This document shows, piece after piece, positions 1,138 through 63,908 of a stretch of 64,000 nt of DNA. The translations under genes and the position numbers were made by a program. The number at the start of each line of letters is the position of its first letter. The stretch's first letter is position 1. Source of the stretch: Giardia intestinalis (taxonomy: Eukaryota). The stretch is from assembly GCA_000002435.2 (NCBI GenBank), contig CM018791.1. The stretch is one strand, 5' to 3'. The notes below the pieces were generated by a model. The model made no database searches. It was not told the DNA's origin and was given only the letters and a program-made list of their open reading frames with translations.

Positions 1138-3264
1138 ATGGATAGCGAGCATGCCACTCGGCGGTGTCTCTCCGAGTGTCTAGGGACCAGTATCCACATG
1201 AGTCCTATCGCCACTTTGCTCTTCAGTAGCTCGTCATTGGTCAATTCTTTGATCGCAGGACTATTCACAGAGTGGGATGGAAAGGATCCTATGATGTTGA
1301 ATGAGGCTACCATGAAGCTTCTGGGCACGTTGACCACTAATCGTGAGCCGCTTTTCAGCTCAACGCCCAAGGGTGAGCTAGGTCTTCTTCTCTGTAAGGC
1401 GGCGCTCTTGATGGTGAAAGAAAGGGACTTCTATGTTGCCTATGCGCTCGTATCGGCTATTTGGCGATCGCTTCAATGCACACACGAGCAAGAGACTTCT
1501 GGCGTATCTGTTTGTAAAGGAAGACTTGCATACTATAGAACCCTGGAGGCATTTCTGAGCGCATTCTGTTATCTAGAACTAGACGAATATACTATTGTTC
1601 CTTACTCGCTTGGTCAATTAGCTCAAAGGCAGTGCCTACTGACGTTCACCCACTTCTTAGAGTACCTCACAGATGGACCAATTCAGCTCAACGAACTTAT
1701 TCAGCTGCTCCATGTGCAGCTATACTCAGCAGTTATGTTCGGTCATCTGGATATGTTACATGAGTGCTATATCGTCACATTGTGTTTGTACTGTTTAGTG
1801 CTGGATCTGTTATTGCAATTAAATCTATTGTCCATTTCAGACACGAGCCAATCTGACAGAAGTTGCAACAATTATACAAGTGCAAAACTTAAGCATCTGT
1901 ATTTACAGACAAACAAAGATAGAAGAGTGTTTGATGAAGAAACTGCTACAACAATAACAGCCTTGTTAAGCGACATTGATGAGACGTTACGAGGACAGTC
2001 GAAGGATAAAAGTGAGTGCTCCCAGGGGGAGACCCTTTTAAACCAAACTAGAGGGGACTGTGCAGTGAAAACCCGTGAGCTACTTGCTAACTATAAGTCA
2101 AGTCATGTAGCAGAAGCCATATATACGTTAGATCAATCGCTTGAGAATAGGCGCCCATATAACATATTTGGAACATCCGGAATTACTATAGCCCAATTAT
2201 ATATCGGAGTCGCACTTCTGCGAAGCCTTATTGAAAGTAGCTTCGGAATAAGCACTCATTTGGCAAACGCCACGTTGCGTGACAAACCTTGTAACAAGAT
2301 GTGTGAGCAAATCTCTGATCTCGCATCATTCTTTCTGCAGGTATCTGAAGAAATTCCTCTACACATTGGAACCGTCTGCTCCCTCAGGCCATGCCAATCC
2401 CTCGATCAACGGATTGACAGGCCAAAGCCTGAGAGCATACGGCCTTATCTTGCCATGCTCAATCGATGTAGCAAAGGGCTCGGCAAGGAACTACAAGTTC
2501 CTCCTCTGTTGAATGCCTCCATGATCAAGTCTCTTTGTGCAGTCATGTGCTCCTGTCTGATGCTGCTCTTGGTTCCTGCCAATGCGGAGTCGACAAGTAT
2601 CCAGTTGGAAAGCGTTATAGACTCACTTAGTATGCTCAGCACTCACTGTACGAATGAGCTCCTGGTAATCTACACGTCTTTGGAGATCTTAAACGCGTTT
2701 ATCGTGTCCAATTGCTCAACACTCCTACTGCATGACATTTCGGAGAGTGTAGGGGCACCAGACGATTTCCAGCTGTCTACTTTTAAAGACACAGCCAAGC
2801 TATCGATAAAACGAATATCATCGAGCCCAAACAGTCAGTACGATTCTCATCTGAATAAGATCTGCGACCAGGTGCCAAAGAAGAGCTTCTGTGACGACAT
2901 TGACGGGTGGGTAGAAGCCATCGTGGACATCATGTATACTATCTCCAGGCAATCTATATCGCTGACCGCGGAGCTTGTCTCTCTGCTACAACGACTCTGC
3001 AGGCGTGAAAGCCTCACGATCTTGCGTCTTCTATGCTCCAACGACGACAGGAGGCTCCAGATAATCAAATACTTGCGGTACTTATGGTTCTTAGCTCAGA
3101 GTTATCGAGATAAAGTCCTGTGCATGCATCAGCGTCTTCAGGGCTACAGCTACGCTGCGCACACGCTGCCACTCATAAGCAACTCCCTTCTGCAGCGCAC
3201 AAGGAGCTTTTTTCCTCTTCAGAGTGTGCTCCTCGATCTGTATGTGATAAGCCTAGAATGGTAG
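1138..3264 (+). CDS. Hypothetical protein (~708 aa), Leu/Cys-rich and largely alpha-helical. No recognisable domain.
   Basis: Long uninterrupted ORF. The ORF track starts at a GTG (1111). The first ATG at 1138 follows the A-rich stretch ccgcaaaaATG. Its 3' end overlaps the convergent downstream gene by 12 bp. Confidence 0.7.
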   Translation: MDSEHATRRCLSECLGTSIHMSPIATLLFSSSSLVNSLIAGLFTEWDGKDPMMLNEATMKLLGTLTTNREPLFSSTPKGELGLLLCKAALLMVKERDFYVAYALVSAIWRSLQCTHEQETSGVSVCKGRLAYYRTLEAFLSAFCYLELDEYTIVPYSLGQLAQRQCLLTFTHFLEYLTDGPIQLNELIQLLHVQLYSAVMFGHLDMLHECYIVTLCLYCLVLDLLLQLNLLSISDTSQSDRSCNNYTSAKLKHLYLQTNKDRRVFDEETATTITALLSDIDETLRGQSKDKSECSQGETLLNQTRGDCAVKTRELLANYKSSHVAEAIYTLDQSLENRRPYNIFGTSGITIAQLYIGVALLRSLIESSFGISTHLANATLRDKPCNKMCEQISDLASFFLQVSEEIPLHIGTVCSLRPCQSLDQRIDRPKPESIRPYLAMLNRCSKGLGKELQVPPLLNASMIKSLCAVMCSCLMLLLVPANAESTSIQLESVIDSLSMLSTHCTNELLVIYTSLEILNAFIVSNCSTLLLHDISESVGAPDDFQLSTFKDTAKLSIKRISSSPNSQYDSHLNKICDQVPKKSFCDDIDGWVEAIVDIMYTISRQSISLTAELVSLLQRLCRRESLTILRLLCSNDDRRLQIIKYLRYLWFLAQSYRDKVLCMHQRLQGYSYAAHTLPLISNSLLQRTRSFFPLQSVLLDLYVISLEW

Positions 3265-6200
3265 GTATATCTTAGACTCTTCTACACAGTCCAGTATGTC
3301 CAAGATCTCTGTAGATACGTTCCCACTGATGCTCATCTGGCCAGTGTCATTTAATTCGATAGTGTTCCGCTTTATGAGCAGTTTATTGCCATGCTCGACT
3401 TGTAGTATGGAGTTGCTGAACGCCTTTCGGAGGGCCTGTCTGCGCTCGTCGCTATTGTCATAGCGGTTCAGAAGTATCAGCTCTGCGGAGTCGTCATACG
3501 GATGTGTCGATTCCACATCTAAGGAGATATCATCATCAATTTTAACAGAAAAGTATCCTCGAGCGATGCTCATCTTGCGATCAATCTTGTTAAATACGAG
3601 GTTTCGACATACGGGAAACTTAACCTTTGGAACCTGATCATGTAGCGAAAAAGCGATGGTTTCTCCAGTTGTAAATAGTAGGCTGTTGCCAAAGTCTGCA
3701 AAGTGTCCGCTTGAGAGATGCACCTGATGTGACTTCTTGGAGGTTGTGACAATGTACTTTTTAAATCTGCCGCGTAGGATGTCTGCCATGTCCTGAAGCT
3801 GCATAATGGGCTCATCGAGAAGAAAGATAAGGTCACACGCGCATACGACTGAGTCAGATAGAGTAGTAGACGTCAGTATTCGGTATGCCTTCTCGCTCTT
3901 CTCCAACTTCATAGTTTCTTCGCAGTGCATCTCAGTGGAGTTGGCATCTGATAACTTGTTGATCGTGGCTGTCTCCTTCTTCTCGGCGATGATTGTCTTA
4001 ATGGATGCAGTGAACTCCTGAACCTGACGATGCCTTGCCATGCAGATGTTGTTGAGATGAGAAAGCGGTATGTCAAGGAATGGTAGGTTGGTTCCAGAGC
4101 GTGTCGAGATAGAACTGGGAAGTGGTGTATCGTCCTTTAAATGGAGGGTATTGGAGACGGGTATGTTGGGCTTAGAGACTTTAATCTCTGGTTCTTCTTT
4201 AACCGAGAGTATTGCCTTCTGTGACTTTTGGCACACAGATCCATAATTTTGTAGAAACAACAACCCATACTGATCTTGCTTACCCTCAAAGTTCTGGTCC
4301 TCATCCGTCTCTGTTAGTGTCCGATATGTTAGATGTAGCTCATCTGTCACTGAGTTATAGACTATGGCTACATCCTTTAAGAAAGCTGTTATCAAGAGTA
4401 TGAACAAGTCCTTTAGTCGTTGTTGGAACGCTATGCTCTGGGTCCCTATATCTTTTAAGGCATCAGGACTGGATCCAGGTGCCTTAGGGCCACTAGATGG
4501 TATCTGGGTAGCTTGCGCTGCAAAGGCGTTGGCATCAGCCAGGAATGTAAGGTAAGGGAGCATGCAGCCTTCTTGTTCTACAGCAGGAGATTCTATGCCG
4601 AAATAGAGATTAGGGGGGACCGCAATGCTATGTTTGGTAAGTACACTTGCTCGCAGGTCCATAGAGGATGGAGCCGGAATCTCTACGCCACCAACCTTGA
4701 CGATTGGACTGCGTCTGATATTCTTACTTCGATAGCCATTAGCATCGTATCCTATGGAGAGATAATGGACGAGAACAGATATGAACGTCATGTCAAAGCG
4801 GATATGGGGAGGTGACTCCAACGTAATGTCTTTGTAGGCATCTGTGGGAGGTATAAAGACATGAGTATCGGACATTCCTAAGATGGTGCGCAGTAGAGAG
4901 AGGCTGAATTCCAAATCTATCACAGGATCTAAGGTCTTAGTCACGGGATTGAAATATTTTGAAACTACTACGCCAAGAATCAAGCTTACGTTAGTTGTGA
5001 CATATCTTTCCTTTGCCTCTGGGGACAGAGCAGCTCCATCTGCTGCATCAGACTGATGAGACTTTTGGGGTCTTTGATCAGTAGTTGAGTCAGCGAGCTG
5101 TTTTTGATAAGCTTCTCTATCCATGATTGTTAATTGCGGGGTTGAAATTTTGGTTAGATGAGCGACCGATTTCCCCTGGCTTTTAAGAAGAATGAGGGAC
5201 AAGAGCTTGTAGCCTGGAGAGCCTCTGGCAATCTTTGGTAAGTACGGACGGATAGATGTCAGCACAATAATGTTTGCGGGGTTAGATGCAAAGCCTCCAG
5301 AGAATAAGAGCTGCCTTCCGGGACCAGACAGAAAGTAGGGGTCTGGAGTCAGTATGAATAATGGAAAGGGTAGGGGCACATCAAGTTGCTGTGCTCTCGA
5401 AGTAATATAAAATTCTGGGGTGATGATACCATCCATTCCAATGGTGCGTAGATAAGATACGTAGTAGAGAAAGACTTGCTCATCCATCAAGAGACAAATC
5501 TTGTAGCTGAGACGCTGCTCTTCTGCATCGGCTCGTTGATCGTTAGATTCAGCAACCGGCTTAGGTGTATATGTTTTTAGTGCAGTGCTAAGCAATGCTA
5601 AGACGTTAGTAAAGCCAGTGATACCATCGCAGACGAACATAGTCTTAGAATACCGCTGTATAGATTGCATAGATTGCGAACCGAAATCTGTTAACGGTGT
5701 GAAGGCACGTTCTAGAAGTTTAAGCATAGCGTGTGAGTCTAGCAGAGGAAAGTTTAGGATGCTCCTCGGAACATTCAAAGGGGTTGAAAAGCAAACCTCT
5801 CCTTTAAGATAGCGGCTGCTTAAGGGAAGATCCAGAGCGACTGAACGCTCCAAAGATTGATATGCGCCTCTATTCTGAAGTATGTCTAAGCTCTTATGGC
5901 GACATGTCGGCATGCAAACGATCTTATTTGTCGAAGGAGGCAGCTGGAGAGACCAGAAGTATTCATCTGCATTGATTCTGTGGTAACTTCCCAAGATAGA
6001 TTGCGTCACTGAGATGACGTTTATCTCCTCAGGTGATTGGATGAAGGAAGAATTGAATAGTCGCTCAAGCTTGAGGTAATCTAAGAGGATGAAGTCCAGA
6101 ACTGGCTGATGACCTTTCATATCAAGACATAAATTGAAGAAAACATTCAACACAGTAGCGTGGAGCGCGGGAACAAGATTGGTGGGTATAAATGTCTTGA

Positions 6201-6429
6201 TCTCCTTTCTGCTCAAAATATACAGGCAGGCACCTGCGTGTTCCAAGGCAGCCGATGTGAGGAGTATTGCGCTGATGTTATCGATGTGGTCATCATACAC
6301 TCGGAGATATGTCTCGTAGGGTGCAGCCAGGCCACAGTCGACAAGAAGAAGAGTGTCGTTTATGGTCAGCAGATACGCATGCACCCCAGTTTCTTCTACG
6401 TCGAAAAGCGGCTGCAGCTCGCATTCCAT
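3253..6429 (-). CDS. CPSF100/CPSF2-like protein, an inactive metallo-beta-lactamase-fold subunit of the mRNA 3'-processing complex (1058 aa).
   Basis: The N-terminus (HAYLLTINDTLLLVDCGL ... IDNISAILLTSAALEHAGACLYIL) parallels the CPSF100 pattern (CYLL..D...LLDCGW ... IDAVLLSHPDPLHLGALPY) and has lost the HxHxDH zinc motif. A long C-terminal region is as expected for CPSF100. The start codon is confirmed as ATG at 6427-6429. Confidence 0.5.
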   Translation of the reverse strand: MECELQPLFDVEETGVHAYLLTINDTLLLVDCGLAAPYETYLRVYDDHIDNISAILLTSAALEHAGACLYILSRKEIKTFIPTNLVPALHATVLNVFFNLCLDMKGHQPVLDFILLDYLKLERLFNSSFIQSPEEINVISVTQSILGSYHRINADEYFWSLQLPPSTNKIVCMPTCRHKSLDILQNRGAYQSLERSVALDLPLSSRYLKGEVCFSTPLNVPRSILNFPLLDSHAMLKLLERAFTPLTDFGSQSMQSIQRYSKTMFVCDGITGFTNVLALLSTALKTYTPKPVAESNDQRADAEEQRLSYKICLLMDEQVFLYYVSYLRTIGMDGIITPEFYITSRAQQLDVPLPFPLFILTPDPYFLSGPGRQLLFSGGFASNPANIIVLTSIRPYLPKIARGSPGYKLLSLILLKSQGKSVAHLTKISTPQLTIMDREAYQKQLADSTTDQRPQKSHQSDAADGAALSPEAKERYVTTNVSLILGVVVSKYFNPVTKTLDPVIDLEFSLSLLRTILGMSDTHVFIPPTDAYKDITLESPPHIRFDMTFISVLVHYLSIGYDANGYRSKNIRRSPIVKVGGVEIPAPSSMDLRASVLTKHSIAVPPNLYFGIESPAVEQEGCMLPYLTFLADANAFAAQATQIPSSGPKAPGSSPDALKDIGTQSIAFQQRLKDLFILLITAFLKDVAIVYNSVTDELHLTYRTLTETDEDQNFEGKQDQYGLLFLQNYGSVCQKSQKAILSVKEEPEIKVSKPNIPVSNTLHLKDDTPLPSSISTRSGTNLPFLDIPLSHLNNICMARHRQVQEFTASIKTIIAEKKETATINKLSDANSTEMHCEETMKLEKSEKAYRILTSTTLSDSVVCACDLIFLLDEPIMQLQDMADILRGRFKKYIVTTSKKSHQVHLSSGHFADFGNSLLFTTGETIAFSLHDQVPKVKFPVCRNLVFNKIDRKMSIARGYFSVKIDDDISLDVESTHPYDDSAELILLNRYDNSDERRQALRKAFSNSILQVEHGNKLLIKRNTIELNDTGQMSISGNVSTEILDILDCVEESKIYLPF

Positions 6430-14440: not shown

Positions 14441-14980
14441 TCACGTTGCGGCCTCAGATGGCGTAAACTTCGTGACTTTCTTGGCGACCTCTGCCTTTAC
14501 CCATTCCAGCGCTTCAAAGGGAGATGCGATCTTTTTCTGGATCTTTGCGTACGAGTCCTGCAGTGGAGGACATATGAACACACGGTACAAGAGAAGCGCA
14601 CACGAAAAGTCATGTTGACCCAACCAGTAGAAGTATAGTGACTTAAACAGTTCATAGTAGGGAACCCATAAGAAAAACTGATCAAGGACATACTCCGCTG
14701 CCATAGAGAGAGCGAAGGCTATCCAGAAGGCACTTGCGTCCTGAATTCTCGCTGCCAGATCCGTGGGCATTTCATCGTCTTCCTGATATTCATTGCACAG
14801 CAGGCGGATGAGACAGTATGACTTGTACGCAGGAACTGCCAGAAAAATTAATCCTCGGACGGCTCTTACGACGGAAGGTAAATCCATTTTTGTGGTGGAT
14901 TTTAATTTTTCATGTCTACGTATACCATCTATGGAGTCCCCACGTGACCTGAGGCGGCTGTGGGACTGCATTTTGGCCAT
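14441..14980 (-). CDS. TB2/DP1/HVA22 (Yop1/REEP) family ER membrane-shaping protein. The start is uncertain.
   Basis: Two hydrophobic hairpins and the family-typical core WIAFALSMAAEYVLDQFFLWVPYYELFKSLYFYWLGQ. The ORF-track start at 14989 is a TTG. Candidate ATG starts are at 14980 (M4) or 14887 (M35). The latter gives the short N-terminus typical of the family and avoids overlap with the divergent gene. Confidence 0.55.
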   Translation of the reverse strand: MAKMQSHSRLRSRGDSIDGIRRHEKLKSTTKMDLPSVVRAVRGLIFLAVPAYKSYCLIRLLCNEYQEDDEMPTDLAARIQDASAFWIAFALSMAAEYVLDQFFLWVPYYELFKSLYFYWLGQHDFSCALLLYRVFICPPLQDSYAKIQKKIASPFEALEWVKAEVAKKVTKFTPSEAAT

Positions 14981-17003
14981 GGGGGACAATGATGTTTACT
15001 ATTCCGAGGCTTGCACAGGCCTTATTGTCACAAGTTTTTATGGAGAGAAGTTGCAGATGGTACTAAAATATCTACGAGACAAGTTCTTTTCTTACACCTG
15101 GTCTACCTTGGAGTCCTTCAGCCAGGATGACTCCGCCCATACCAGGATCACAGCCCTTAAAGGTATCATTAAGTATTCCCGAACCGTATGCTCATCAATG
15201 AGCTTTATTCATTCACATTATTGCAAGGAGCTCCTTGTTGATTTACTTACTCCTGAGGCCAAGGATGCCTCGTTTAGCTATAACAGCAAGGACCTTCTAA
15301 GTCCCATTTACAACCGTCTTTGCACCCTCCGTGAACTGTATTGTCCTAGTGCATTACGGGGAGCCAGTGTGCAAAGACCCAACCTTTATATTGAAGGCAT
15401 TCGTGTAGCAACAACGCCAATCAAGGAGGTTCTTCTTCTCTATAGCGAGCTCTCACCAAATCACAAAGAGGAAGTCCAGGAGATGGTAGAGGGAGCGCTC
15501 TTATTTGATGCGGACAGGTACTTATTGGACTTCACAGAGTTTGTATCTGTACAATTGAACGCACCCTTAGGTTGCCATGCAGTGGAGCTCTTTCATCGCT
15601 TGTCCATCTTTGAAGAGGAAATGCTATCTGCGCTGCATCAGATACTTCCAGTGGAATCCAAATTCGATCCAGCGCAGACCCTGGCTCGAGTGTGCAATGC
15701 CGCTATCTGTCTAGGCGTGAAAATGCATCCCGAAAGACACTGGGAAGGCATAAGAATTATTGTAGATAAACTAGTAAAAGAAGAGATTCCTGTATGCAGT
15801 ACAATGGTGTCATTTATGGATCATACCATCCTTGCCTTCATAATGAACAAACGACACAGAGAGTTTGTGGATATCATGACTAACATAGTATGCAGAGGAC
15901 TTACTGCCGCCAACGACGTACAGTGCCTCTTTAGATCTCTATTCAGAGTAGACACTTTGACCAATCATACGGGTGTACACTACGCAAAGCTCTTGGACAC
16001 AATCCATAATAGATTAAATAGTGTTATCAGCAATGGAAGCTGCTCCATCAAGGAACAAATAGGACTATATGCAGCAGCGTTTATCAACTTCCACCATGTG
16101 AGGGGAGAGATGGAAGCCCTGACAAAGATCATGCCTCACAAACCATTATTCTTTTGCAAACTGTTTGAAGAACGGATATTGTTGGATCTCTTTTCACGTA
16201 TGACTGCACTGCGACTGGGGTTAACCTTCATGGATCAACATCTTGACAAACTATCCTATATTCTGGCCGAGCTGGAGCTGTTCACGGTGCTAGCATCCAT
16301 ATTTACGCCATGCCTTACTCAGCTGTATGCATACGTGCTTACCATTTCAACAGGGTGTAGAGAGGCACGTCAGATTGAAGCGAAATCGAAAGCTTTGTAT
16401 GCTTTTGTCACGACATCAGGGTGGAAGAGCTCGATGCCAAAGATAGCTGGGCTAATAGCTACATTGGTCCAGCCAGTAACATCCAGTAATGTTGAGATAG
16501 GATTTTCGAATATTCGCTTGCCAGAGACAGTAAAGACAGCCCTCTGTGAGGCCAGATTTGCCGCCATAAATGTCGGAGCCGATGACAGGCTGAGAGTGGT
16601 CCGCGAAGATTGCCTTCGCAAACTAACAAGAAACAGTTGTGACACAGATTGCTTAAATCAATTGGTAAGTGCAGGTTACTTTTATGTATCAATATCTCCA
16701 GAAGATATGAACTTCCCATTGAAGCTCACAGATTCCTTAAGCAACAGAACCAGAAGCGATAACAATACCAATAGCAATAGCGGTAACAAGGAACCAAAGA
16801 AACTGGAGATCATGGCACGCCTGTCGCGGATGGTGAAGACATCAGGAAGGATCTCTGTTGAAGATCTGGTAAATGCTTGCCATGAACACTATAAAGCAAC
16901 CAGTACCATTACCAAAAGCGAAATATCAGACATAGTTCAGCGTCTCACTGAGTCTGACGTACTAGAGTGGACGGGAGAGAAGATGCTGCAATGGCATGAT
17001 TAA
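14931..17003 (+). CDS. Hypothetical protein (~690 aa, alpha-helical). No recognisable domain.
   Basis: Long ORF. The ORF-track start at 14793 would overlap the divergent Yop1-like gene. Internal ATGs at 14931 (MESPRDL...) or 14979 (MGDNDVYY...) are more plausible. The stop TAA at 17001-17003 overlaps the stop of the convergent gene (TTAA). Confidence 0.65.
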   Translation: MESPRDLRRLWDCILAMGDNDVYYSEACTGLIVTSFYGEKLQMVLKYLRDKFFSYTWSTLESFSQDDSAHTRITALKGIIKYSRTVCSSMSFIHSHYCKELLVDLLTPEAKDASFSYNSKDLLSPIYNRLCTLRELYCPSALRGASVQRPNLYIEGIRVATTPIKEVLLLYSELSPNHKEEVQEMVEGALLFDADRYLLDFTEFVSVQLNAPLGCHAVELFHRLSIFEEEMLSALHQILPVESKFDPAQTLARVCNAAICLGVKMHPERHWEGIRIIVDKLVKEEIPVCSTMVSFMDHTILAFIMNKRHREFVDIMTNIVCRGLTAANDVQCLFRSLFRVDTLTNHTGVHYAKLLDTIHNRLNSVISNGSCSIKEQIGLYAAAFINFHHVRGEMEALTKIMPHKPLFFCKLFEERILLDLFSRMTALRLGLTFMDQHLDKLSYILAELELFTVLASIFTPCLTQLYAYVLTISTGCREARQIEAKSKALYAFVTTSGWKSSMPKIAGLIATLVQPVTSSNVEIGFSNIRLPETVKTALCEARFAAINVGADDRLRVVREDCLRKLTRNSCDTDCLNQLVSAGYFYVSISPEDMNFPLKLTDSLSNRTRSDNNTNSNSGNKEPKKLEIMARLSRMVKTSGRISVEDLVNACHEHYKATSTITKSEISDIVQRLTESDVLEWTGEKMLQWHD

Positions 17004-18745
17004 GAATTTGAAAACTCTTGAGGCTCTTGTGGTTTGCTGACGCTGTTATGTCGCTCAACAGCGATGAGGCACACAAAAAGAAAAGTAATGGCCATAAAGA
17101 ACACCCCCAAAACAATCCCATACAGCTTGAAGTTGGGCCCGAATATATTGCTTATTATAATCTCGTCTATGGGATATACCTTTCCACAGGCTCTAGTGTT
17201 GTTCATGAGCTGGTAATATACCATGCTAGCCTGTGAGTTCAAATTACTTATTATAGTTTGACACAAATCACTGGTTGTGGCCGTGGTGGAAGAAGATGAA
17301 ATTAAACATCTCATGCTCGCAAAGAGTGACTCAGTTTGCTTCTGTAAAGGCATGAGAACTGTGATGTTTTCTTTTTCGATACTCTCAAAGAAAATATCCT
17401 GAAAAATCTTACGATTCGGGGCGAAGATTAGCCGGATGTGAGTGCAATCAGTACCTATGGCGCTGTTTTCACGCAGGATAGTGTTAGACGCGTTAAACAT
17501 CAACATGAAGGATGTCACAGTAACAGACGCTGTGTCCCAGTCGACCAGTTCAACAATGTTGACAAGGTACCTAGCTATATCTATGGAGCCGCCGCCTAGG
17601 TGCATTGCCAAAATAAAGTCAGAGATAAGTGATGACTGAAATAGTTCTTCGGCGACTCTCAGCGTCGTCTTTCCCTTGTGAATCATCGATATGCATGTCG
17701 AGCAGTTGTATACAAGCACCCCTTTGCCGTCTACCAAGTTTAGTGCAACTGGGGACACGAATCGCGCGGGCTCTAATGGGCTCTTAAAACCAAATATCAG
17801 AAGCTCTGGCGACAAGGAGTAAATGGGCACATTGTCATGAGTCTTAGTGAAGGGACAGGCTGCAGAGATGGTCCTAGATATGTAGACAGAGATAGTCTTT
17901 GTTGATATTACCACTCGAACATTGGAGAAGCAATCATAGTAGTTAACCGTGCGTAAGCCGAAAAGCCGATTAGTCAAGATTGCATACTTGTTTCCAAGAG
18001 AAATGTTGAAGGTCATGTACAGGAAAACAAACGGACTGCTAACAAGAGAGTAGTAGTTGGAGGTGCACTCATCTTCACAATGAAAAGTAACCAGCGCATC
18101 GGTCAGGATAGAAGACGTGGGCTTGATAGATTTCTGCAAGAACTTTCTGAGCTTGTTGGTGGAGCTGTCCAGATATATGAGGGTGAGGTGATGGTCTATG
18201 ATTGCACTCATAGGTATCATGGAGCACTTGTAAGACGGGTGCAGCTGGGCAAGAAACACAACTCGGGACTTCTCCATGAGGATATCGAGAGTTTGGTCGT
18301 TGGAAAAACAATCCCGATAATTATAACTGTCGACCTTCAACGTCATAATCTGTCGGGACGCAAGTAGCTGAGAAGTAGCGCTCGAGACAGATATATGAAC
18401 GCCTGACTTGTAGGAGACATCACACAAATTGCGGTGTGAGTCGTCATCGTGCCATGAGAAGAAATCAATAAGCATAGTATCGTTGTACGAATCCAGCATT
18501 ACCAAAATTTGATCACGATTCGACGTCAGGAAGTGGAGAAGGATCTCTCCCTGAAAGCTTGCACAAAGGGGATTTTCAAGATTAGGACTGAATCCTTGCA
18601 AAACGAAAAGACACGAACCATAGATCGCGGTTCCATTCATCAGACTTTGAAGACACACCCCCAGATCTTGCTTAAGGAAGTCATCAGGGTATGCTATCTC
18701 TGTGTCATAATTATGAAGGGAGACCAGCATGAGCAAGAAGAGCAT
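17000..18745 (-). CDS. Hypothetical type I membrane protein (581 aa): signal peptide, large lumenal/extracellular domain, C-terminal TM anchor.
   Basis: N-terminal MLFLLMLVSLHNY. C-terminal hydrophobic segment YGIVLGVFFMAITFLFVCLIAV followed by a short charged tail. ATG confirmed at 18743-18745. Confidence 0.7.
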   Translation of the reverse strand: MLFLLMLVSLHNYDTEIAYPDDFLKQDLGVCLQSLMNGTAIYGSCLFVLQGFSPNLENPLCASFQGEILLHFLTSNRDQILVMLDSYNDTMLIDFFSWHDDDSHRNLCDVSYKSGVHISVSSATSQLLASRQIMTLKVDSYNYRDCFSNDQTLDILMEKSRVVFLAQLHPSYKCSMIPMSAIIDHHLTLIYLDSSTNKLRKFLQKSIKPTSSILTDALVTFHCEDECTSNYYSLVSSPFVFLYMTFNISLGNKYAILTNRLFGLRTVNYYDCFSNVRVVISTKTISVYISRTISAACPFTKTHDNVPIYSLSPELLIFGFKSPLEPARFVSPVALNLVDGKGVLVYNCSTCISMIHKGKTTLRVAEELFQSSLISDFILAMHLGGGSIDIARYLVNIVELVDWDTASVTVTSFMLMFNASNTILRENSAIGTDCTHIRLIFAPNRKIFQDIFFESIEKENITVLMPLQKQTESLFASMRCLISSSSTTATTSDLCQTIISNLNSQASMVYYQLMNNTRACGKVYPIDEIIISNIFGPNFKLYGIVLGVFFMAITFLFVCLIAVERHNSVSKPQEPQEFSNS

Positions 18746-18816
18746 TTTTCATGCTAGGACAAGCTGGCTCTTACAGAAAAAGGAAAATCTGAACTTTAAA
18801 ATCTTAAAAATCGTGC

Positions 18817-19221
18817 ATGGAAAAAGAGATCGACTATGCAGCTCTTGAGCAGCGCGCTAAGGAGCTTTATGCTCAAATCCAGGACGTGAACGTTCCAGAT
18901 AGATTTAAAAACCCTTCCAATTTTTCCACACAAAAGGTCAGTCTCGACAACTCAGCACCACTGATTGCGAACGGATCCCAGAGCCTTTCGGCCACGGCGA
19001 CAGAATCTAGAAAGTCAAATGCATCCATGTTTTATACTACTTCTAACAGCGAGTATGGAGACTTCACACCCTCCATAGTTGAGATGCCCACGCAGTGGAA
19101 TGGGAACAAAATTATCGTGAGTCGTCAGCAAAATAATGTCGTCTATCGATACGACGGATTCAACACCGAGGTCGACAAGAATAGATACATGGACCCTTAC
19201 GTCACTATCCGCCGCAAGTAA
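18817..19221 (+). CDS. Small hypothetical protein (134 aa).
   Basis: ORF preceded by an A/T-rich stretch (ttaaaatcttaaaaatcgtgcATGG). It fills the gap between flanking genes with 48 bp to the next ATG. No recognisable motif. Confidence 0.45.
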   Translation: MEKEIDYAALEQRAKELYAQIQDVNVPDRFKNPSNFSTQKVSLDNSAPLIANGSQSLSATATESRKSNASMFYTTSNSEYGDFTPSIVEMPTQWNGNKIIVSRQQNNVVYRYDGFNTEVDKNRYMDPYVTIRRK

Positions 19222-22477: not shown

Positions 22478-22690
22478 TACTCTTTCCCCCAATCCGCCAT
22501 AAGCTGAGCTTCACGCAAAGCCATGGAGTGGCAAGAATCTTAAAAGCTATGGAGCACAGGACTTCACGGGAATCTAGAACCTTATCCTGGAGCTCTTGTC
22601 TTTCCCCGCCTGTAGCCGTACTGTCGGGTTCTACCTCTGGTAAATTTACCCACTATCAAAATTCTTTGTGGGCGCTGAGAATCCTGGTAG

Positions 22691-28569: not shown

Positions 28570-28950
28570 CCTCTTCTTTAAAAATTTGTGCTACTCTACT
28601 CTACCCTATCGTTCTCAGGTAATTAATGATATCATAAAAAACAGAGAGACTTGTTAGTCGTGCACTCTACATAAGCTCAAGCCTAGAATTTAACAGATGT
28701 TTCACGGAGTAGAATGGAACTAATTATATTTGGGATTGATGTTTTATAGGTCTCCTGCTCTTTTTAGAGTTGCACTAAGCTGACGAGGTTTCCTCTTTCT
28801 TTGCTTATGGTTCATGCTTTTCTGACGCTGATTGGATTTGCTTGCAGGTTATTACTGAGCTCTACTACTGTTTCCGCTTCAAGTGAACTTTCTGCCGGCC
28901 GCGTTATACAGTATCATTGAAGATTTGTTATAACAACTATAACTCAAAAA

Positions 28951-31437
28951 ATGACGTCTGCGCCGCAGCCCTCGGGCCTCTTCGACCCGGCGCCCCGGCC
29001 CACGGCGGCGGGGGACGGACGCCCGCCCGCGGCAGCCGCGCCCTCGTTCGTCCTCGCCGGCGACCCCGAGGGCCTCGCAGGCGCGTTCCTCCGCGTCGTC
29101 CACCAGGCGCTCGTCCTCGGGCGGCTCGAGGCCCTCCTCGACGGCCCCCCGCCCGCCGGAGACGCCCCGCAGCTCTGGGCCGGGCTCCTCCGCGCCGCGC
29201 TCGCCGGGGCGGGGACGCTCGACCTGGGGCCTCTTGCCGCGCAGCTCGGGCCGCTCCCAGACCCCGGGGCGCTCCCGGCGCTCGTCCGCTCCCTCCCGGC
29301 CCCCGTCTGCGCCGCGCTCTTCGGGCTCCCCGGGCCCTGCCCCGCGTGCGGCGCGCCCTCCCAGCCCGGGGCGAGCGCCGTCCTCGCGCCCGGAGAGGCC
29401 CTCGCCGCAGGGGCCCGGCGGGTCGGCCTCCGCTGCGAGAGCTGCACCCGCCCAGACGCCCTCCCGCTCGCCCGGCCGCCCCTCCTCCGCGCCGTCGCCG
29501 TCCCCCCGGGCTTCGCGGGCCCCGTCCCCCTCCGGCTCCCCGGCGACCTCTTCCTCGGGGCCGTCGTCACCCGCGCCCGCGCCGGCCACGCGCTCTCGGT
29601 CTTCGTCAACCCCGCCTTCGCCCAGGGCCGGAGCGACCTCGTCCGGGACCGCCGCTTCGTCCTCTACGCGCCCCCGGCCGCCGAGCTCCGCGCCCAGCCC
29701 GGGAGCCGCGCCGCCGAGCTCACGTACCTCCGCTACCGGAAGGTCCAGGCGTACCTCGAGCGCCCCGCCGCCGCCCGCGAGGCCGCCTCCTTCGGGGCGC
29801 CCCGCTTCGTCTTCTACTTCGACGGAGACGTTCTGCACCCAGACATTAGGAAGCGCTTTAATGCGCTAGCCTCTGATACTGACCTGATTGCGATTAATCC
29901 ATCACTATCTGCTCCACATCAGCCTCCAACCCTTTCGCAGCCACACACGCTATCCTCCCCCAAGGAGCCAGAAACTGTTGATGTCACACTTAAAGTCGGT
30001 GGTGCTACCAAGCAAACTCTAGCTGAACAGCAGCACACTCTTGCCTCTCCGTCCCTAGATTCGAGACCGCCTTTGAGTACACTTTCTTTGCACAAATCTA
30101 GCCAACTAGTTGGTGAATCGACTCCTTGGAAAGAAACCAAGACGATCTTATTGCGCCCAGACTTTGTTCAGGAAAGGAAAACATCGTGTTCAGATGAATT
30201 TCGTGAGCACATGGGCATATACATTCTGATTATTGTTCTAGCAGTTATAGTTCTTGTTCTCTTCATCCTCGTGATTGTTCTCTATTCCAGATTGATTAAT
30301 TTGACTGTTCGCAATCTACTTGTCACAAATTTCACGGCAATAGGTGTCCAGTCACGCTTAGACATCCCCAACCCAGCGCAGTTCACGTGCCCAAGTGGGA
30401 TTCAAGACGTGAACGCAGTAAGATACTGTGAGCAGATGGCTCCTGATGCAACCGTTGGCCTCTATGCACCAACTGTTCGAACCGGTACATTCAATTCTAA
30501 GCAGTACAATGTGACCAACCTCTACTATTCTAATATCTTCCTTCTTAACTTTACTCAGATAGCCCCTCTGAATGTCTCCGAACTCATAGCACAGAATATT
30601 ATGACAAATGACGTCACATATAGTACAGAACTTGTCCAGGAAGGGACAGCAGAGTTCCGGACCGGCCAGGTTAGTGTCCAAGGCTTTAGAAGTGCAGATT
30701 TCACCAACACAACGCTGAATTTCAGTCTTACGAGCCTTTCTGCTCTTCATGTGCGTGGCATCTCCTCGCCAAGCTCTGTGACTCCGTCGACTATAGGAAC
30801 TGTCAATGCCGGCAAACTAGTGTTGGCTCAAAAAGATCCAATCACTCCAATCACCACCTTCAGTATAATAGGAGACGTCAATGTGTCACGCCTCGTTGGA
30901 GGCTCTACAACAATCGGACAGCAGGCACTAGAATGGGTGTTTCAGAACGTATCCGCTTCCAAGCTAGTTACCACACCCGTAACAACGACAGTCAAGACAA
31001 TCAATGGAATGGATACTCCTGTCACATTAGATATAAACCTCAATGATGCTTTGTCCGTGAAGACTCTCACTCTTCTTAAGTCGGGTACGTCGGCATCGAT
31101 CCAAATATCTGCTGCATTTACCATCAGTAAGGCTTCTGTATACAATTGCACTACAGCCTTGCTGACAATTCCTAGTGCCACAGCGACTCCGCCCAACACG
31201 GGAACTGGTTTGTATATCAAGAGCCTCTCTGATAAACCGTTTCCTCAGATATCTGCTCTGGTTGTGGGGAATATTCGGATTGACAATGGGGGGATATGCA
31301 ACGCCAATGACCCTCCGGCATCTACGACGCGGACATGCATGATATCAAGCGCAGGCAGCAGCAATATCGGGTCTATGTCTGCCACGACAGTCACTTCTAC
31401 TGGGCAGTTGAAGAGCTCTTTCTGCCAATGCACATGA
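28951..31437 (+). CDS. Compositionally chimeric ORF (828 aa): an Ala/Pro/Gly/Arg/Leu-rich N-terminal ~295 aa encoded by ~80% GC DNA, fused in frame to a single-pass membrane protein with a Thr/Ser/Asn-rich ectodomain.
   Basis: ATG at 28951 follows an A/T-rich initiator (aactataactcaaaaaATG). GC3 exceeds 90% through ~29836, then composition abruptly returns to ~45% GC. There is a TM segment MGIYILIIVLAVIVLVLFILVIVLY at ~30212-30290 and many NxS/T sequons downstream. An alternative internal start is the Met at 30211. Confidence 0.55.
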   Translation: MTSAPQPSGLFDPAPRPTAAGDGRPPAAAAPSFVLAGDPEGLAGAFLRVVHQALVLGRLEALLDGPPPAGDAPQLWAGLLRAALAGAGTLDLGPLAAQLGPLPDPGALPALVRSLPAPVCAALFGLPGPCPACGAPSQPGASAVLAPGEALAAGARRVGLRCESCTRPDALPLARPPLLRAVAVPPGFAGPVPLRLPGDLFLGAVVTRARAGHALSVFVNPAFAQGRSDLVRDRRFVLYAPPAAELRAQPGSRAAELTYLRYRKVQAYLERPAAAREAASFGAPRFVFYFDGDVLHPDIRKRFNALASDTDLIAINPSLSAPHQPPTLSQPHTLSSPKEPETVDVTLKVGGATKQTLAEQQHTLASPSLDSRPPLSTLSLHKSSQLVGESTPWKETKTILLRPDFVQERKTSCSDEFREHMGIYILIIVLAVIVLVLFILVIVLYSRLINLTVRNLLVTNFTAIGVQSRLDIPNPAQFTCPSGIQDVNAVRYCEQMAPDATVGLYAPTVRTGTFNSKQYNVTNLYYSNIFLLNFTQIAPLNVSELIAQNIMTNDVTYSTELVQEGTAEFRTGQVSVQGFRSADFTNTTLNFSLTSLSALHVRGISSPSSVTPSTIGTVNAGKLVLAQKDPITPITTFSIIGDVNVSRLVGGSTTIGQQALEWVFQNVSASKLVTTPVTTTVKTINGMDTPVTLDINLNDALSVKTLTLLKSGTSASIQISAAFTISKASVYNCTTALLTIPSATATPPNTGTGLYIKSLSDKPFPQISALVVGNIRIDNGGICNANDPPASTTRTCMISSAGSSNIGSMSATTVTSTGQLKSSFCQCT
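28956..29836 (+). other. Roughly 0.9 kb compositional island (~80% GC against a ~48% background) with strong 3-nt periodicity in the +1 frame of the 28951 ORF.
   Basis: Codon-by-codon reading shows third positions are almost exclusively G/C while second positions are mixed. All six frames are stop-free across the block: ORF-track entries 28879-29838(-), 28917-29849(+), 28944-29609(-) and 29234-29869(+) all terminate at the edges of the block. Confidence 0.9.
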
Positions 31438-34153: not shown

Positions 34154-34582
34154 GGGAAGCTAAGTTTTAGGAGCTAAGTTTTAAGATGTAAATTTTCTAC
34201 AAAATTGAGACGGGCTTATAGACTAAGGCTAAGTCTTTCTATGACAAAGCGGGTCCACACTCTTTAGAACCTGAGCTATGGCAAAGTAGCACAACGCTGG
34301 CCATAAAATATCACTTGAGAAATTGAACGTTAGTTGTGTGGAAGGTTAGTATGTGAAAGCAGAGTGTATATTTTTTGAGGAACACACTACAGATTAGGTT
34401 TCGCCCAACTGTCCTCGTTCCTAGCACGAAGCCCACACCATAATTGCTAAAACGGAAACGACAATTCAATATTTCAACTCAATTTTTCGTTAATCAATAA
34501 TTTAGCATAATGAATTAAAATATGAAAAAGGTCAGCGGCGATAATCTAGAGTTAATCTAGGGTAATACAGGGAACTGCAAAC

Positions 34583-44077: not shown

Positions 44078-44245
44078 GTTTCAATGCAGCTGCCACTAGC
44101 GGAAGAAAGAAGCCTAGAAGTGCAGTCTCTCTGGTAGCTCGAACGCCTCGAAGGTGGCAGATATTTGATGGTGCTTTTGAGATATAGTCACATTTGAAAT
44201 GAAAAATTTACACAAATACTTGCAGGAGCTACGTCCTGCGTTGTC

Positions 44246-61564: not shown

Positions 61565-62887
61565 TTATTCCAATATATTGTATCCGGATGCAATCTGAAG
61601 CAGAGATTGAATCAGGTGTATTGCCACTGAGAGGGCATCAACCGCAGGGGACTCTATCGTGAGGGGTGGCTTGCCAACAGAAAGACCACTTTTCTCTAAA
61701 ATGTTTTTCAATTCTATCAAGTTTTTAATTTCCCTGAACGGGCTGCTGGCAGAGTAATCACTCATGCACAGATGAATCGCACTAATGCAGTGCATGCAAA
61801 GCTCTGTAGTTGTCTTTTCAGTAAGGGGATTTAGAGGATCATCCCCTAGCGTCTGTTTGATAAATGAGAGCAATCCTGATCTTAGTTCCTCTTGGAACGT
61901 ACAGTCTGATTGCTCGGCATAGGAAGACATGTCATTGGAATAAACTGATCTGCGACCCTCCATCTGGAATTCTGACGGCTCCGGGGTTATAGGAGTCGTA
62001 GTTACACTGGGGGTACTACAGATATTATTACAGGTATAACTGTAAGGGCAATGCAATCGCAAAATCAGCGACTCAGAAGCGGGATTACCGTACGTTAGTA
62101 TTTTCAGTTGAGGTGAAAACGTATCACGGGCATCCAATAGTTGCCTGCAACCTTTTGTTCCTATGTCGTTGTGGTTTAGATGCAGCTCACGCAACGGTCT
62201 ATTTGATCTGGAGGCAAGCTCTATGAACTTTCGGAAGTGCTCCATGTGTTCGTCGCACAAATTGCAATTACTCAACTGCAGTATTTCTAATGCAATGCAG
62301 CGATCAAAGATGGCGAGCAGAAGATCATGAATGGACTTAGAAGTAAACCTGAAAGAACCGGAGCAGGATAATTTGCTGAGCTGGAGAAACGATACGGGAG
62401 ATTGTGTAAACCAATCTATCATAAGGTAAACCTCATCCTGCAGCAAGCGATTCCCAGCCAGATTTAAACACTTCAGGTTTCTAGACTCCTTGATGCCTTC
62501 AAAGATTATTGCCAAAAGGGTCCTTGTGAGTTTGCATCCTTCAAGGTCCAGGCTATGAATAGGGGTATACAGCCGGCGGACCTTACGAGCCTTACTTCCC
62601 GCTACTGGATTTTCAGCTATCGATTCATGGGATAGCCGCTGTCTGATTGCAACGGCCATTTCCTTTGTTAGATCAACTGATTGCATGCTAATCTTCCCGT
62701 CTTCATCGCTAATAAGCAGATTCTGAGAAGATGCACGTTCCAGTGTACAGGATGTAGAACTAAGACCTGAAAACTCTGAAGAAGCAGCTTTAGGCCTCTT
62801 ATTGGACTTAGACTGAGCAGGGTAATTGGCGTAAAAGAGCGGGATAATGCTGTCTCGGATGGTATCAACTGGTTTCCATGGCTGCAT
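61565..62887 (-). CDS. RNI-like leucine-rich-repeat protein (~440 aa).
   Basis: Ribonuclease-inhibitor-type repeats (LKCLNLAGNRLLQDEV, LEILQLSNCNLCDEHMEHF, LRELHLNHNDIGTKGCRQL). The ORF-track start at 62905 is TTG. The first ATG is at 62885-62887. Confidence 0.6.
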   Translation of the reverse strand: MQPWKPVDTIRDSIIPLFYANYPAQSKSNKRPKAASSEFSGLSSTSCTLERASSQNLLISDEDGKISMQSVDLTKEMAVAIRQRLSHESIAENPVAGSKARKVRRLYTPIHSLDLEGCKLTRTLLAIIFEGIKESRNLKCLNLAGNRLLQDEVYLMIDWFTQSPVSFLQLSKLSCSGSFRFTSKSIHDLLLAIFDRCIALEILQLSNCNLCDEHMEHFRKFIELASRSNRPLRELHLNHNDIGTKGCRQLLDARDTFSPQLKILTYGNPASESLILRLHCPYSYTCNNICSTPSVTTTPITPEPSEFQMEGRRSVYSNDMSSYAEQSDCTFQEELRSGLLSFIKQTLGDDPLNPLTEKTTTELCMHCISAIHLCMSDYSASSPFREIKNLIELKNILEKSGLSVGKPPLTIESPAVDALSVAIHLIQSLLQIASGYNILE

Positions 62888-63908
62888 GGCACAAGTAAGA
62901 AGCAAAATGGCTTCTCGGCTGATCGCTTTAAAAATGACAGTAGAAGCGGAGATCTTAGAAAGGCACCCTGCGCGGGAATGGCTTCCAAAGGGACACTCCT
63001 ATGACCACAAGAAGATACTACCAAGCCTTTCAGCCGAGATTTGCGGATATCTACAGTACAAGGCACCACCGCCGGATCGACAAAGGCAGGTACAAAGGCT
63101 CTTACAGAAGCTAGAGGGAAGGATTCGGGCTTCTGAGATATTTAGGGGCTATATTTCTACGTCTGGGCCGTTGCTGCGCGTCGTAGGCAGCTATGCCAAC
63201 GGAACAGCATCATGCACGTCCCCCATCGATGTTTGTGTGCTGATCATTACACCAAACTCTATGGAAACGGTTGCCGATCCCAAGCTTTGGTTTGCATTTT
63301 CTAAGATACTCTTAAACACAGGGTATACCCTTGTCTCAACACAGTTTTATCAGTCTATTGTCAGAACTGTTGTGGTGCATACTGAACTGCCCGTGGCACT
63401 TCACTTTTATTATCATGGGAAGGAGCTCATGAACAATACAGAGCGTGCCATCCAACTGTTCAAGGAAAGCCCATCTCTTCAGCAACTGCATTGTCTCATA
63501 AAGGCCATTTGTAGACACAAGTGCATACATGGGTTCACTCATGGAAACATTTCTTCTCACTATATTTTTCTTTTGATTCAAGCCTTCGCACTAACCCTCC
63601 TCCCCAAGCAACTCACGGAGACTGTCGGCAGCTTGCTTATCCTCTTCACCAATTTTATCTCTAACTACGATGAATCTATCTATTATGCAGACGTGCACAG
63701 CGGCAACATCTTGTGTGAACAAAAGATACACCGAACAGAGCCGTACTTTGAGGTACGTTCTGCTTCTTTTTATGACATGCACGATGTTCCATACAAATAT
63801 TGTGTGTTTAAGGATACAATGATGGAGATATCCCGGCTCCTGCGGCATTACGAGTCGCCAGGTGTGGCAGCACCAATCAGCATAGTATTTGAGCTTTGTG
63901 GATTCTAG
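62886..63908 (+). CDS. Non-canonical nucleotidyltransferase (Cid1/GLD-2/TUTase-like poly(A) or poly(U) polymerase).
   Basis: Pol-beta-type NTase motif GSYANGTASCTSPIDVCV (~63153-63207), i.e. [GS]x9-13Dh[DE]h, followed by a helical PAP/25A-associated-like region. The start is uncertain (ATGs at 62847, 62859, 62886, 62907). The 62886 ATG shares the CATG with the divergent gene's start. Confidence 0.55.
   Translation: MAQVRSKMASRLIALKMTVEAEILERHPAREWLPKGHSYDHKKILPSLSAEICGYLQYKAPPPDRQRQVQRLLQKLEGRIRASEIFRGYISTSGPLLRVVGSYANGTASCTSPIDVCVLIITPNSMETVADPKLWFAFSKILLNTGYTLVSTQFYQSIVRTVVVHTELPVALHFYYHGKELMNNTERAIQLFKESPSLQQLHCLIKAICRHKCIHGFTHGNISSHYIFLLIQAFALTLLPKQLTETVGSLLILFTNFISNYDESIYYADVHSGNILCEQKIHRTEPYFEVRSASFYDMHDVPYKYCVFKDTMMEISRLLRHYESPGVAAPISIVFELCGF

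Follow-up and report, generated by a model that had tools for sequence, protein, structure and literature searches.

The locus analysed here raises the question of whether the genes of a head-to-head pair in Giardia intestinalis share their start codons. In the window, that is, the whole 64,000-nt stretch of DNA under study (contig CM018791.1), the tetranucleotide CATG, which reads as ATG on both strands, lies at the boundary of two divergent gene pairs. A preliminary description took both tetranucleotides as shared starts, placed the promoters of each gene inside the coding sequence of its partner, and reported that a convergent pair shares its stop codons. Our comparison with related lineages makes it very probable that neither head-to-head pair has shared starts, that spacers of 43 and 46 bp separate the genes, and that both CATGs are coincidental; the stop overlaps are real.

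The G+C content of the window was approximately 46-47%, equal to that of the WB reference genome, and approximately 92% of the stretch analysed was coding. An Rfam scan of the whole window gave zero matches at the gathering thresholds. The encoded proteins were long; one of them, of 1156 aa, was rich in ankyrin repeats. The compaction had initially suggested a microsporidian origin, which was abandoned in view of these proteins and of the connection between the relatives and Giardia duodenalis sequencing runs. The syntenic relatives used for comparison were contigs from Giardia sequencing-run assemblies (labelled L001, L002, L004 and so on); one run, SRR21529631, is named in a genome paper on Giardia duodenalis, and runs SRR445168-172 are possibly part of the RNA-seq series GSE36490. 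The DNA alignment of the first pair consisted of the window and four other Giardia lineages, five lineages altogether.

The Yop1-like gene and gene B

The features of the first pair are as follows.

14441-14887, minus strand: TB2/DP1/HVA22 (Yop1-like) coding sequence, 148 aa, starting MDLPSVV (Pfam PF03134 and orthologue alignment)
14888-14930, both strands: 43-bp divergent intergenic region between the two conserved starts, a putative shared bidirectional core promoter
14899-14910, both strands: ATTTTAATTTTT, an AT-rich, almost symmetrical element read from the sequence, reading AAAAATTAAAAT on the minus strand, with a putative initiator-like function
14931-17003, plus strand: gene B, 690 aa, starting MESPRDLRRLWDCIL at ATG 14931 (orthologue conservation)
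14978-14981, both strands: first CATG, on the plus strand the codon for Met17 of gene B, on the minus strand an upstream ATG that is not conserved and falls within the non-coding leader of the Yop1-like gene (alignment)

The CATG at 14978-14981 was present as described, with the ATG at 14979 (+) in the frame of the long plus-strand ORF and the ATG at 14980 (-) in the frame of the TB2/DP1/HVA22 ORF. At this CATG and at the second one, the frames were open on both strands. The minus-strand gene is predicted to belong to the TB2/DP1/HVA22 (Yop1/REEP) family, with a PF03134 match (E=3e-9, 37 bits against a curated cutoff of 27.2) that covered residues 53-141 of the extended ORF and lay within the 148-aa protein. 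For gene B, the Pfam search returned a weak cullin-neddylation-like match at the C-terminus and nothing else.

The starts of both genes were located by their orthologues. The protein alignment of the Yop1-like orthologues began only at MDL[PS]SV, the sequence 'AAAAATGGAT' at this start showed no variation across the five lineages, and L001 carried an in-frame stop six codons upstream of 14887. In the DNA alignment, the ATGs at 14887 (-) and 14931 (+) were invariant in all five lineages. The gene B calls in the relatives began at the identical alignment column; all four relatives lacked an upstream ATG and had an in-frame stop 2-7 codons before the conserved one, and the N-terminus followed the conserved pattern M-x-x-x-x-x-L-x-x-[LI]-W-x-x-[IM]-L. 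The spacer behaved differently from the coding sequence. It measured 58-74 bp in the relatives, its lengths were not kept modulo 3, and gaps occurred in 40 of its 75 alignment columns versus 0 in the flanking coding columns; one of the indels was 20 nt long. The first CATG itself was found in the window lineage alone, the four relatives reading ATAG, GAGA, ACAG and GAGA, and Met17 of gene B was replaced by I, I, V and I. No A-rich context was seen around this CATG. Past the AT-rich element but ahead of ATG 14931, an out-of-frame ATG was observed at 14912-14914; it would be the first one met if transcription started inside the element.

The LRR gene and the nucleotidyltransferase-like gene

The second pair comprises the following features.

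61565-62887, minus strand: leucine-rich-repeat (RNI-like) gene, 440 aa, starting MQPWKPVDTIRDSI at ATG 62887 (Pfam LRR_6, LRR_1)
62885-62888, both strands: second CATG, whose CAT is the genuine LRR start and whose G opens the intergenic region; the plus-strand ATG at 62886 is not the conserved start (alignment)
62888-62933, both strands: 46-bp divergent intergenic region between the conserved starts, a putative shared bidirectional core promoter
62926-62933, plus strand: CTTTAAAA, an initiator-like element adjoining ATG 62934, of which the relatives keep TTTTAAAA[AT]ATG
62934-63908, plus strand: nucleotidyltransferase-like gene, 324 aa, starting MTVEAEILERHP (orthologues)

The CATG at 62885-62888 was likewise found, and its ATG at 62887 (-) opens the LRR ORF; the ATG at 62886 (+) shares the frame of the nucleotidyltransferase-like ORF. 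The conserved N-terminus of the LRR protein, MQPW[KR]P[VI]DTIRDSI, was preceded by sequence that was not conserved, and the start CAT was kept in four of the five aligned lineages; L010, for which no intact LRR gene was called, read ATA at this position. The CATG position read CATA in L011, L012 and L014. The nucleotidyltransferase-like gene gave a weak MTPAP-like Pfam match (E=0.004) that fell below the cutoff. Its orthologues in three other lineages were 324 aa long and began at M30 of the extended ORF, ATG 62934 was invariant in the relatives, and a TAA stood two codons upstream of it in all three. The spacer was 51 bp in the relatives, with indels confined to it. The extension of the ORF was kept in L015 and L016, which are 99% identical and too close to the window to be informative. 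An indel in the window lineage appears to have removed the TAA, opening the frame upstream of 62934.

The comparison of orthologous N-termini that the preliminary description had proposed as a check was carried out with protein and DNA alignments, and it placed the starts at 14887 (-) and 14931 (+) and at 62887 (-) and 62934 (+), not at the CATGs. Of the four ATGs that the two CATGs provide, three are thus not the conserved starts, and the conserved starts leave non-coding spacers of 43 and 46 bp, so the proposal that promoters lie inside the partner's coding sequence was not borne out. The alternative ATGs named in that description, 14887 (-), 14931 (+) and 62907 (+), were all present and in frame. 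As fallback starts they were correct for the first pair (14931/14887), and for the second pair the conserved start was 62934, not 62907. The earlier reading had taken the third in-frame ATG of each plus-strand ORF, not the first. These start positions and their conservation were observed directly in the alignments; the starts used in this isolate are, as we infer from that conservation, probably the same ones.

The open frames could also mean that the CATG starts are truly used in the window lineage, so that the coding sequences abut or overlap and the promoters of both pairs lie within the partner genes. The four ATGs do all lie in frame, and the nucleotidyltransferase-like extension is shared with L015 and L016, whose near identity makes this point uninformative. 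However, three of the four ATGs are missing from the other lineages, and the relatives carry in-frame stops or frame-breaking indels within the supposed extensions. Gene B started from 14979 would lose 16 residues, including the conserved L..LW..IL, and the contexts of the CATG ATGs are GC-rich, unlike Giardia start sites (PMC7000408). We consider the use of the CATG starts extremely improbable.

A related alternative concerns the second pair, in which the nucleotidyltransferase-like gene might start at 62907 (MASRLIALKMTVEAE...) in the window lineage, leaving a 19-bp spacer and placing the LRR promoter within the partner coding sequence. This ATG would add a 9-residue extension and is preceded by the A-rich AAGTAAGAAGCAAA (85th percentile of start context), and in the window as well as in L015/L016 the frame stays open up to 62934. 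Against it, the relatives read GGCTTAATTT without an ATG and their TAA closes the frame, and 62934 is invariant, has the better context and resembles the published TSS consensus. A start at 62907 is therefore unlikely, and 62934 is the preferred start.

Start contexts, putative promoters and the CATG coincidence

The context of the candidate starts was scored with a weight matrix derived from 21 further genes in the window, which is too weak to decide alone; it favours 14887 and 62934, but not 14931 or 62887. The percentiles were 93rd for 14887, 96th for 62934, 2nd for 14931, 47th for 62887 and 85th for 62907, so that 62934 had the best score among the five candidate ATGs. Right around 14931 (+) and 62887 (-), the sequence was not A-rich, and the case for these two starts thus comes entirely from the orthologues. 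An AT-rich initiator-like element was clear near the Yop1-like start (AAAAATTAAAAT...CAAAAATG) and near the nucleotidyltransferase-like start (CTTTAAAAATG); it was weak near the gene B start 14931 and the LRR start 62887, the latter being T-rich rather than A-rich. The motif AAATTTAC occurred in four copies at three loci, all 35-50 nt upstream of starts, and this was not significant, since 8 of 100 shuffles reached the count.

Known Giardia promoters are rich in A and T and act in both directions (Teodorovic et al. 2007, PMC1885649). In Giardia TSS-seq data, ATTTTAATTTT and AAATTAAAAT(G) were among the commonest initiation-site variants (Tolba et al. 2013, PMC3792122), and the TSS consensus variants of the same study included ATTTTAATTTT and CTTTTAAAAAT. 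The spacers described here resemble such bidirectional core promoters (PMC1885649, PMC3792122) in the head-to-head arrangement, the very short distance and, clearly for two of the four starts, the AT-rich initiator-like elements beside them. The nearly symmetrical ATTTTAATTTTT fits a listed consensus variant (PMC3792122), and CTTTAAAA resembles the variants CTTTTAAAAAT and ATTTTAAAATG (PMC3792122). In contrast to the studied ran/phd promoter of 153 bp, the present putative promoter spacers are only 43 and 46 bp long; in addition, two of the four starts have no A-rich run directly upstream, unlike Giardia bidirectional promoters.

The following mechanism would account for these observations. 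Each spacer may act as a compact bidirectional core promoter, in which ATTTTAATTTTT (14899-14910) and CTTTAAAA (62926-62933) would place the TSSs a few to approximately 20 nt from each ATG, and the initiator of one gene would lie roughly at the expected site of the partner's upstream AT-rich element. Giardia 5' UTRs are 1-14 nt long and are not scanned (PMC3610916). With no ribosome scanning and such very short 5' UTRs, the AUG nearest the cap would be chosen. As for the CATGs, short spacers hold few stops, so that frames stay open beyond the genuine starts, and when the spacer is 1 mod 3 in length the two strands are in compatible frames, allowing a chance CATG. In the first pair, the CATG is most probably an internal Met17 codon on the plus strand and a spurious upstream ATG on the minus strand. 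In the second pair, the CAT is most probably the real minus-strand start and the plus-strand ATG spurious, reachable through the lineage-specific indel.

Only a spacer that is 1 mod 3 in length lets both strands share a frame, and 43 and 46 bp both qualify. In simulations, a doubly usable in-frame CATG was found in 20-21% of the pairs with such a spacer and in approximately 7% when the phase condition was dropped. The window contained 303 CATGs, with approximately 249 expected from base composition. The CATG coincidence at two pairs is not beyond chance.

It could also be proposed that the upstream and the conserved ATGs are both used, promiscuous initiation giving minor N-terminally extended isoforms that overlap the partner. 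Giardia does initiate at multiple sites and at cryptic AT-rich patches, and numerous transcription regions are situated within ORFs or a long way upstream of them (PMC1885649, PMC3792122). However, the extensions are not conserved and thus give no sign of selection, and the sequence immediately upstream of 14980 and of 62886 contains no AT-rich patch; we regard dual use as very unlikely. Equally slight is the chance that, with upstream frames opened by small spacer indels in the window lineage, translation of some transcripts starts at the CATG ATGs or at 62907, producing young, lineage-specific N-terminal extensions. If true, these extensions, antisense to the first codons of the partner, would be a snapshot of how head-to-head overlap originates without ribosome scanning.

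Initiation at the conserved starts, the preferred reading, agrees with earlier work on Giardia annotation. The start codons of 626 WB genes were corrected with the help of A-rich motifs and of alignments between orthologues (Xu et al. 2020, PMC7000408). As in those mis-assigned starts, the first or longest in-frame ATG over-extends an ORF into its neighbour, and cross-lineage alignment corrects it; unlike that over-extension, the gene B start had been put 16 codons too far downstream. For annotation, a preference for the longest ORF, or for whichever in-frame ATG is convenient, leads to false gene overlaps in Giardia, and cross-assemblage alignment fixes the starts. In microsporidia and nucleomorphs, intergenic regions are very short and transcripts run into neighbouring genes. 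The organism and the promoter logic differ here, and the resemblance is to the earlier idea of shared starts.

Overlapping stops of convergent genes

The 3' ends involved are listed below.

3253-3264, both strands: 12-nt 3'-end overlap of the convergent ORFs 1138-3264 (+) and 3253-6429 (-) (ORF coordinates)
17000-17003, both strands: TTAA, the TAA stops of gene B (+) and of a 581-aa gene (-), both with syntenic orthologues
17000-18745, minus strand: the 581-aa gene, which is tail to tail with gene B and encodes a hydrophobic segment at the C-terminus (ORF; syntenic orthologues of 533 and 573 aa)
63905-63908, both strands: CTAG, the TAG stops of the nucleotidyltransferase-like gene (+) and of a 726-aa gene (-) that runs past the window end (sequence)

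The preliminary description was right about TTAA at 17000-17003, where the TAA of the plus strand occupies 17001-17003 and that of the minus strand 17002-17000. All four genes at the TTAA and CTAG junctions had syntenic orthologues; both junctions join real convergent genes, the stops of which have the two central bases of a 4-nt YTAR in common. At the 17000 junction, the relatives showed a 3-nt gap (L001/L002) or a 20-nt gap (L004/L005), indicating that the TTAA overlap is lineage-specific. Because the stops of these tail-to-tail pairs overlap, their 3' UTRs would have to extend antisense into the partner's coding sequence. None of the hexamers AGTRAA, GTRAAY, TGTAAA, AATAAA and ATTAAA was found within 120 nt past the six overlapping stops, an absence that is uninformative because approximately 47% of mapped Giardia polyA sites have no prominent signal (PMC3610916).

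Such overlaps are ordinary for Giardia, in which gene overlaps and mis-assigned starts are already known. The transcripts of tail-to-tail pairs overlap in 81% of cases in G. intestinalis (PMC3610916), and in G. muris 9.5% of the genes overlap a neighbouring one, by 21 bp on average (PMC7641422). The genome compaction with antisense consequences that had been suggested for this locus is real in a weaker form, and it has been published for Giardia (PMC1885649, PMC3610916, PMC3792122, PMC7000408, PMC7641422). The two-gene spacers of 43-46 bp and the shared stops illustrate a compact genome in which antisense transcripts are common, and they introduce no new principle. The convergent overlaps of 4 nt (TTAA, CTAG) or 12 nt, with 3' UTRs that would be antisense, are like those of other overlapping Giardia genes (PMC7641422, PMC3610916) and differ from them in nothing substantial. 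The 4-nt overlap at 63905-63908 is notable for its persistence, as it was YTAR in every relative (TTAG, TTAA, CTAA and TTAG) while its outer bases varied.

Relatives and in-frame start codons

The proteins of the window matched, at 80-99% identity, sequences solely from assemblies of public sequencing runs; SRR21529631, the run behind one relative assembly, is listed in a study of clinical isolates of Giardia duodenalis (PMC10132058). The relatives form several lineages, which behave like different Giardia assemblages.

In the preliminary description, two head-to-head gene pairs were proposed to start at a shared CATG, and one convergent pair to share TTAA stops. The motifs were read from the sequence at exactly the reported coordinates: CATG at 14978-14981 (gcCATGgg), CATG at 62885-62888 (gCATGg) and TTAA at 17000-17003. 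In the first pair, ATG(-) 14980 was in the same frame as an ORF matching Pfam TB2/DP1/HVA22 (Yop1-like; 37 bits, cutoff 27.2), and ATG(+) 14979 was in frame with the long + strand ORF terminating at 17003 (gene B). In the second, ATG(-) 62887 headed the LRR ORF, and ATG(+) 62886 was in frame with an ORF having a weak MTPAP-like nucleotidyltransferase match. All of these ORFs contained further in-frame ATGs nearby, and the proposed + starts were the third in each + ORF.

Further in-frame ATGs (ORF reading)
14980/14971/14887, - strand, Yop1-like ORF
14808/14931/14979, + strand, gene B ORF
62847/62859/62886/62907/62934, + strand, nucleotidyltransferase-like ORF

Conserved starts of the two divergent pairs

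For the first pair, we compared the window with the syntenic contigs of four other lineages (L008, L001, L009, and L004). The alignment of orthologue N-termini, which had been suggested as a check on the shared starts, placed the beginning of Yop1-like conservation at MDL[PS]SV (ATG 14887), not at 14980, and the residues upstream were unrelated or missing. The sequence around 14887(-), AAAAATGGAT, was identical in all five aligned sequences, and L001 contained an in-frame stop 6 codons 5' of the Yop1-like start. For gene B, ATG(+) 14931, seen as CAT on the opposite strand, was unchanged in 5/5 sequences, and all four relatives had an in-frame stop 2-7 codons upstream of this position with no intervening ATG. 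Residues 1-16 followed a common pattern, M-x5-L-x2-[LI]-W-x2-[IM]-L, and separate gene calls on all four relative contigs put the gene B start at the same alignment column as 14931. Start positions from such prokaryote-style calls on the relatives' contigs are unreliable; in L004, the Yop1-like start was called at an internal Met (111 aa), and the frame was open from the conserved ATG 5884 (~150 aa, L004:5884-6336). The CATG at 14978-14981 was replaced by ATAG, GAGA, ACAG, and GAGA in the four relatives, and Met at 14979 by Ile, Ile, Val, and Ile. Indels, one of 20 nt, were confined to the interval between the two conserved ATGs (gapped columns, 40/75 vs 0/148 in flanking coding sequence). The spacer measured 43, 64, 60, 58, and 74 bp across the five sequences; thus its length modulo 3 was not conserved. 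Based on the conserved ATGs, the upstream stops and the spacer-only indels, the features were therefore delimited as follows.

14441-14887, - strand, Yop1-like gene, 148 aa (conserved start)
14888-14930, non-coding spacer between the conserved starts
14931-17003, + strand, gene B, 690 aa (conserved start)

These results did not support a shared CATG start in this pair; the starts proposed as the alternative, 14931 and 14887, were those found invariant. Judged from the alignments, the CATG most probably represents Met17 of gene B, with a spurious upstream ATG on the other strand.

For the second pair, the nucleotidyltransferase-like orthologues of three other lineages were 324 aa long, and their first residue corresponded to M30 in the extended ORF (MT[VL]E[AT]EILERHP), which is ATG 62934. 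In these lineages a TAA lay two codons 5' of this position (TTTTAAAATATG); the window lineage has GCTTTAAAAATG, in which a small indel moves the TAA to another frame, leaving 33 codons open upstream of 62934. The LRR protein was conserved from MQPW[KR]P[VI]DTIRDSI (ATG 62887), with unrelated sequence upstream. In the CATG at 62885-62888, the base following CAT was A in L011, L012, and L014, so that these relatives have no + strand ATG at this position. The orthologue starts, the upstream TAA and the conserved LRR N-terminus therefore gave the following boundaries.

61565-62887, - strand, LRR gene (conserved N-terminus)
62888-62933, spacer between the conserved starts, 46 bp (51 bp in relatives)
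62934-63908, + strand, nucleotidyltransferase-like gene (orthologue starts, upstream TAA)

Thus 62887(-) was retained as the LRR start, but the conserved + start was 62934, and the frame leading to the CATG is closed in relatives. The suggested alternative, 62907, also failed, with GGCTTAATTT at that position in relatives. That 62907 or the upstream ATGs are used to a minor extent or in a lineage-specific way is, taken together, unlikely. At L010:4600-5000, the LRR start was ATA and just 37- and 64-aa fragments were called; a pseudogene or a faulty assembly may explain this.

CATGs expected by chance and the spacers as possible promoters

For one CATG to work on both strands, the spacer must be 1 mod 3 in length, as 43 and 46 bp are. 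Random spacers of intergenic composition were simulated between N-termini matched for codon usage. Of the pairs in the 1 mod 3 phase, 20-21% had a CATG that could give both genes an ATG in frame and free of stops; the average over the three phases was ~7%. WB has a reported ~1,300 tail-to-tail pairs (PMC3610916); head-to-head pairs are presumably about as numerous, and coincidences of this sort would then be expected in large numbers genome-wide. The first Giardia annotation is known to have suffered from over-extended starts that produced false overlaps; the WB 2020 reference corrected 626 starts, based on orthologue alignments and an A-rich motif (PMC7000408). The CATG "shared starts" belong to this class of artefact. 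What the window does contain, two bidirectional spacers of very short length and overlapping stop codons, is already known from Giardia.

Giardia 5' UTRs are 1-14 nt long, without ribosome scanning (PMC3610916), and its core promoters, made up of degenerate AT-rich elements located both at the start site and ~30 bp upstream, fire bidirectionally (PMC1885649). Initiation consensus variants from TSS-seq include ATTTTAAAATG, CTTTTAAAAAT, AAATTAAAATG, and ATTTTAATTTT, at times used bidirectionally between neighbouring genes (PMC3792122). The first spacer contained ATTTTAATTTTT at 14899-14910 (on the - strand AAAAATTAAAAT, then CCACCACAAAAATG), and CTTTAAAAATG was located at 62926-62936. Read together with the published promoter features, these AT-rich elements suggest that each spacer (43 bp, 46 bp) may act as a compact promoter common to both genes of its pair. 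The contexts of 14931 and 62887 were not A-rich (start-context matrix built on 21 genes), and an out-of-frame ATG, 14912, precedes 14931. In a DNA alignment of the first pair, AAATTTACAAG upstream of gene B was kept in L001, L009, and L004 and read AGATCTACAAG in L008; the segment was deleted in the window.

A third short head-to-head pair was observed between starts 18817(+) and 18745(-), the latter of a 581-aa gene; its 71-bp spacer (18746-18816) contained CTTTAAAATCTTAAAAAT.

18817-19221, + strand, Piercer-of-microtubule-wall (PF14892) gene, 134 aa (Pfam match)

Elsewhere, AAATTTAC at 22640-22649, 34188-34195, and 44204-44211 was intergenic only, 35-50 nt 5' of start codons. Its overall count was not significant; it may be the counterpart of the CAATTT/CAAT-like upstream element of Giardia promoters (PMC3792122, PMC1885649).

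Convergent stop overlaps and window composition

The TTAA at 17000-17003 holds both stops of the convergent pair, as first described, and both genes have orthologues. In relatives, this junction had a 3-nt gap (L001/L002) or a 20-nt gap (L004/L005), owing to length variation in the 581-aa protein's C-terminal tail. At 63905-63908, CTAG links the nucleotidyltransferase-like gene to a 726-aa gene continuing past the window end, and this overlap was kept as YTAR in all lineages examined (CTAG, TTAG, TTAA, CTAA). The outer-base changes, which leave both stops intact, are in effect "synonymous" stop substitutions on either strand.

YTAR at this junction in relatives (alignment)
L011:5152-5155
L012:1770-1773
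L014:2297-2300
L010:5972-5975

A third convergent pair, ORFs 1138-3264(+) and 3253-6429(-), overlapped by 12 nt at the 3' ends (3253-3264). Overlaps were thus found at 3/9 convergent junctions. The count is approximate: the gene list comprised ORFs of 120 aa or longer, and at least one small gene was absent from it (Piercer-like, 134 aa, 18817-19221). The overlaps are in line with the literature: transcripts overlap in 81% of tail-to-tail pairs in G. intestinalis (PMC3610916), and in G. muris 9.5% of genes overlap neighbours (mean 21 bp), where polyA signal and stop often overlap as well (PMC7641422).

With the corrected starts, the coding share was ~92% for 1138-63908. The window G+C was ~46-47%, and its proteins were long and frequently low-complexity; one, of 1156 aa, was ankyrin-repeat-rich. 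A G+C island of 78-84% (vs ~46% for the genome) spanned ~800 bp at 28950-29850. Searches of this island for a tandem repeat, a Pfam match and an Rfam match each found none; the island makes up the initial ~300 codons of an 828-aa ORF, 28951-31437(+), a part rich in Ala, Pro, Gly, and Leu.
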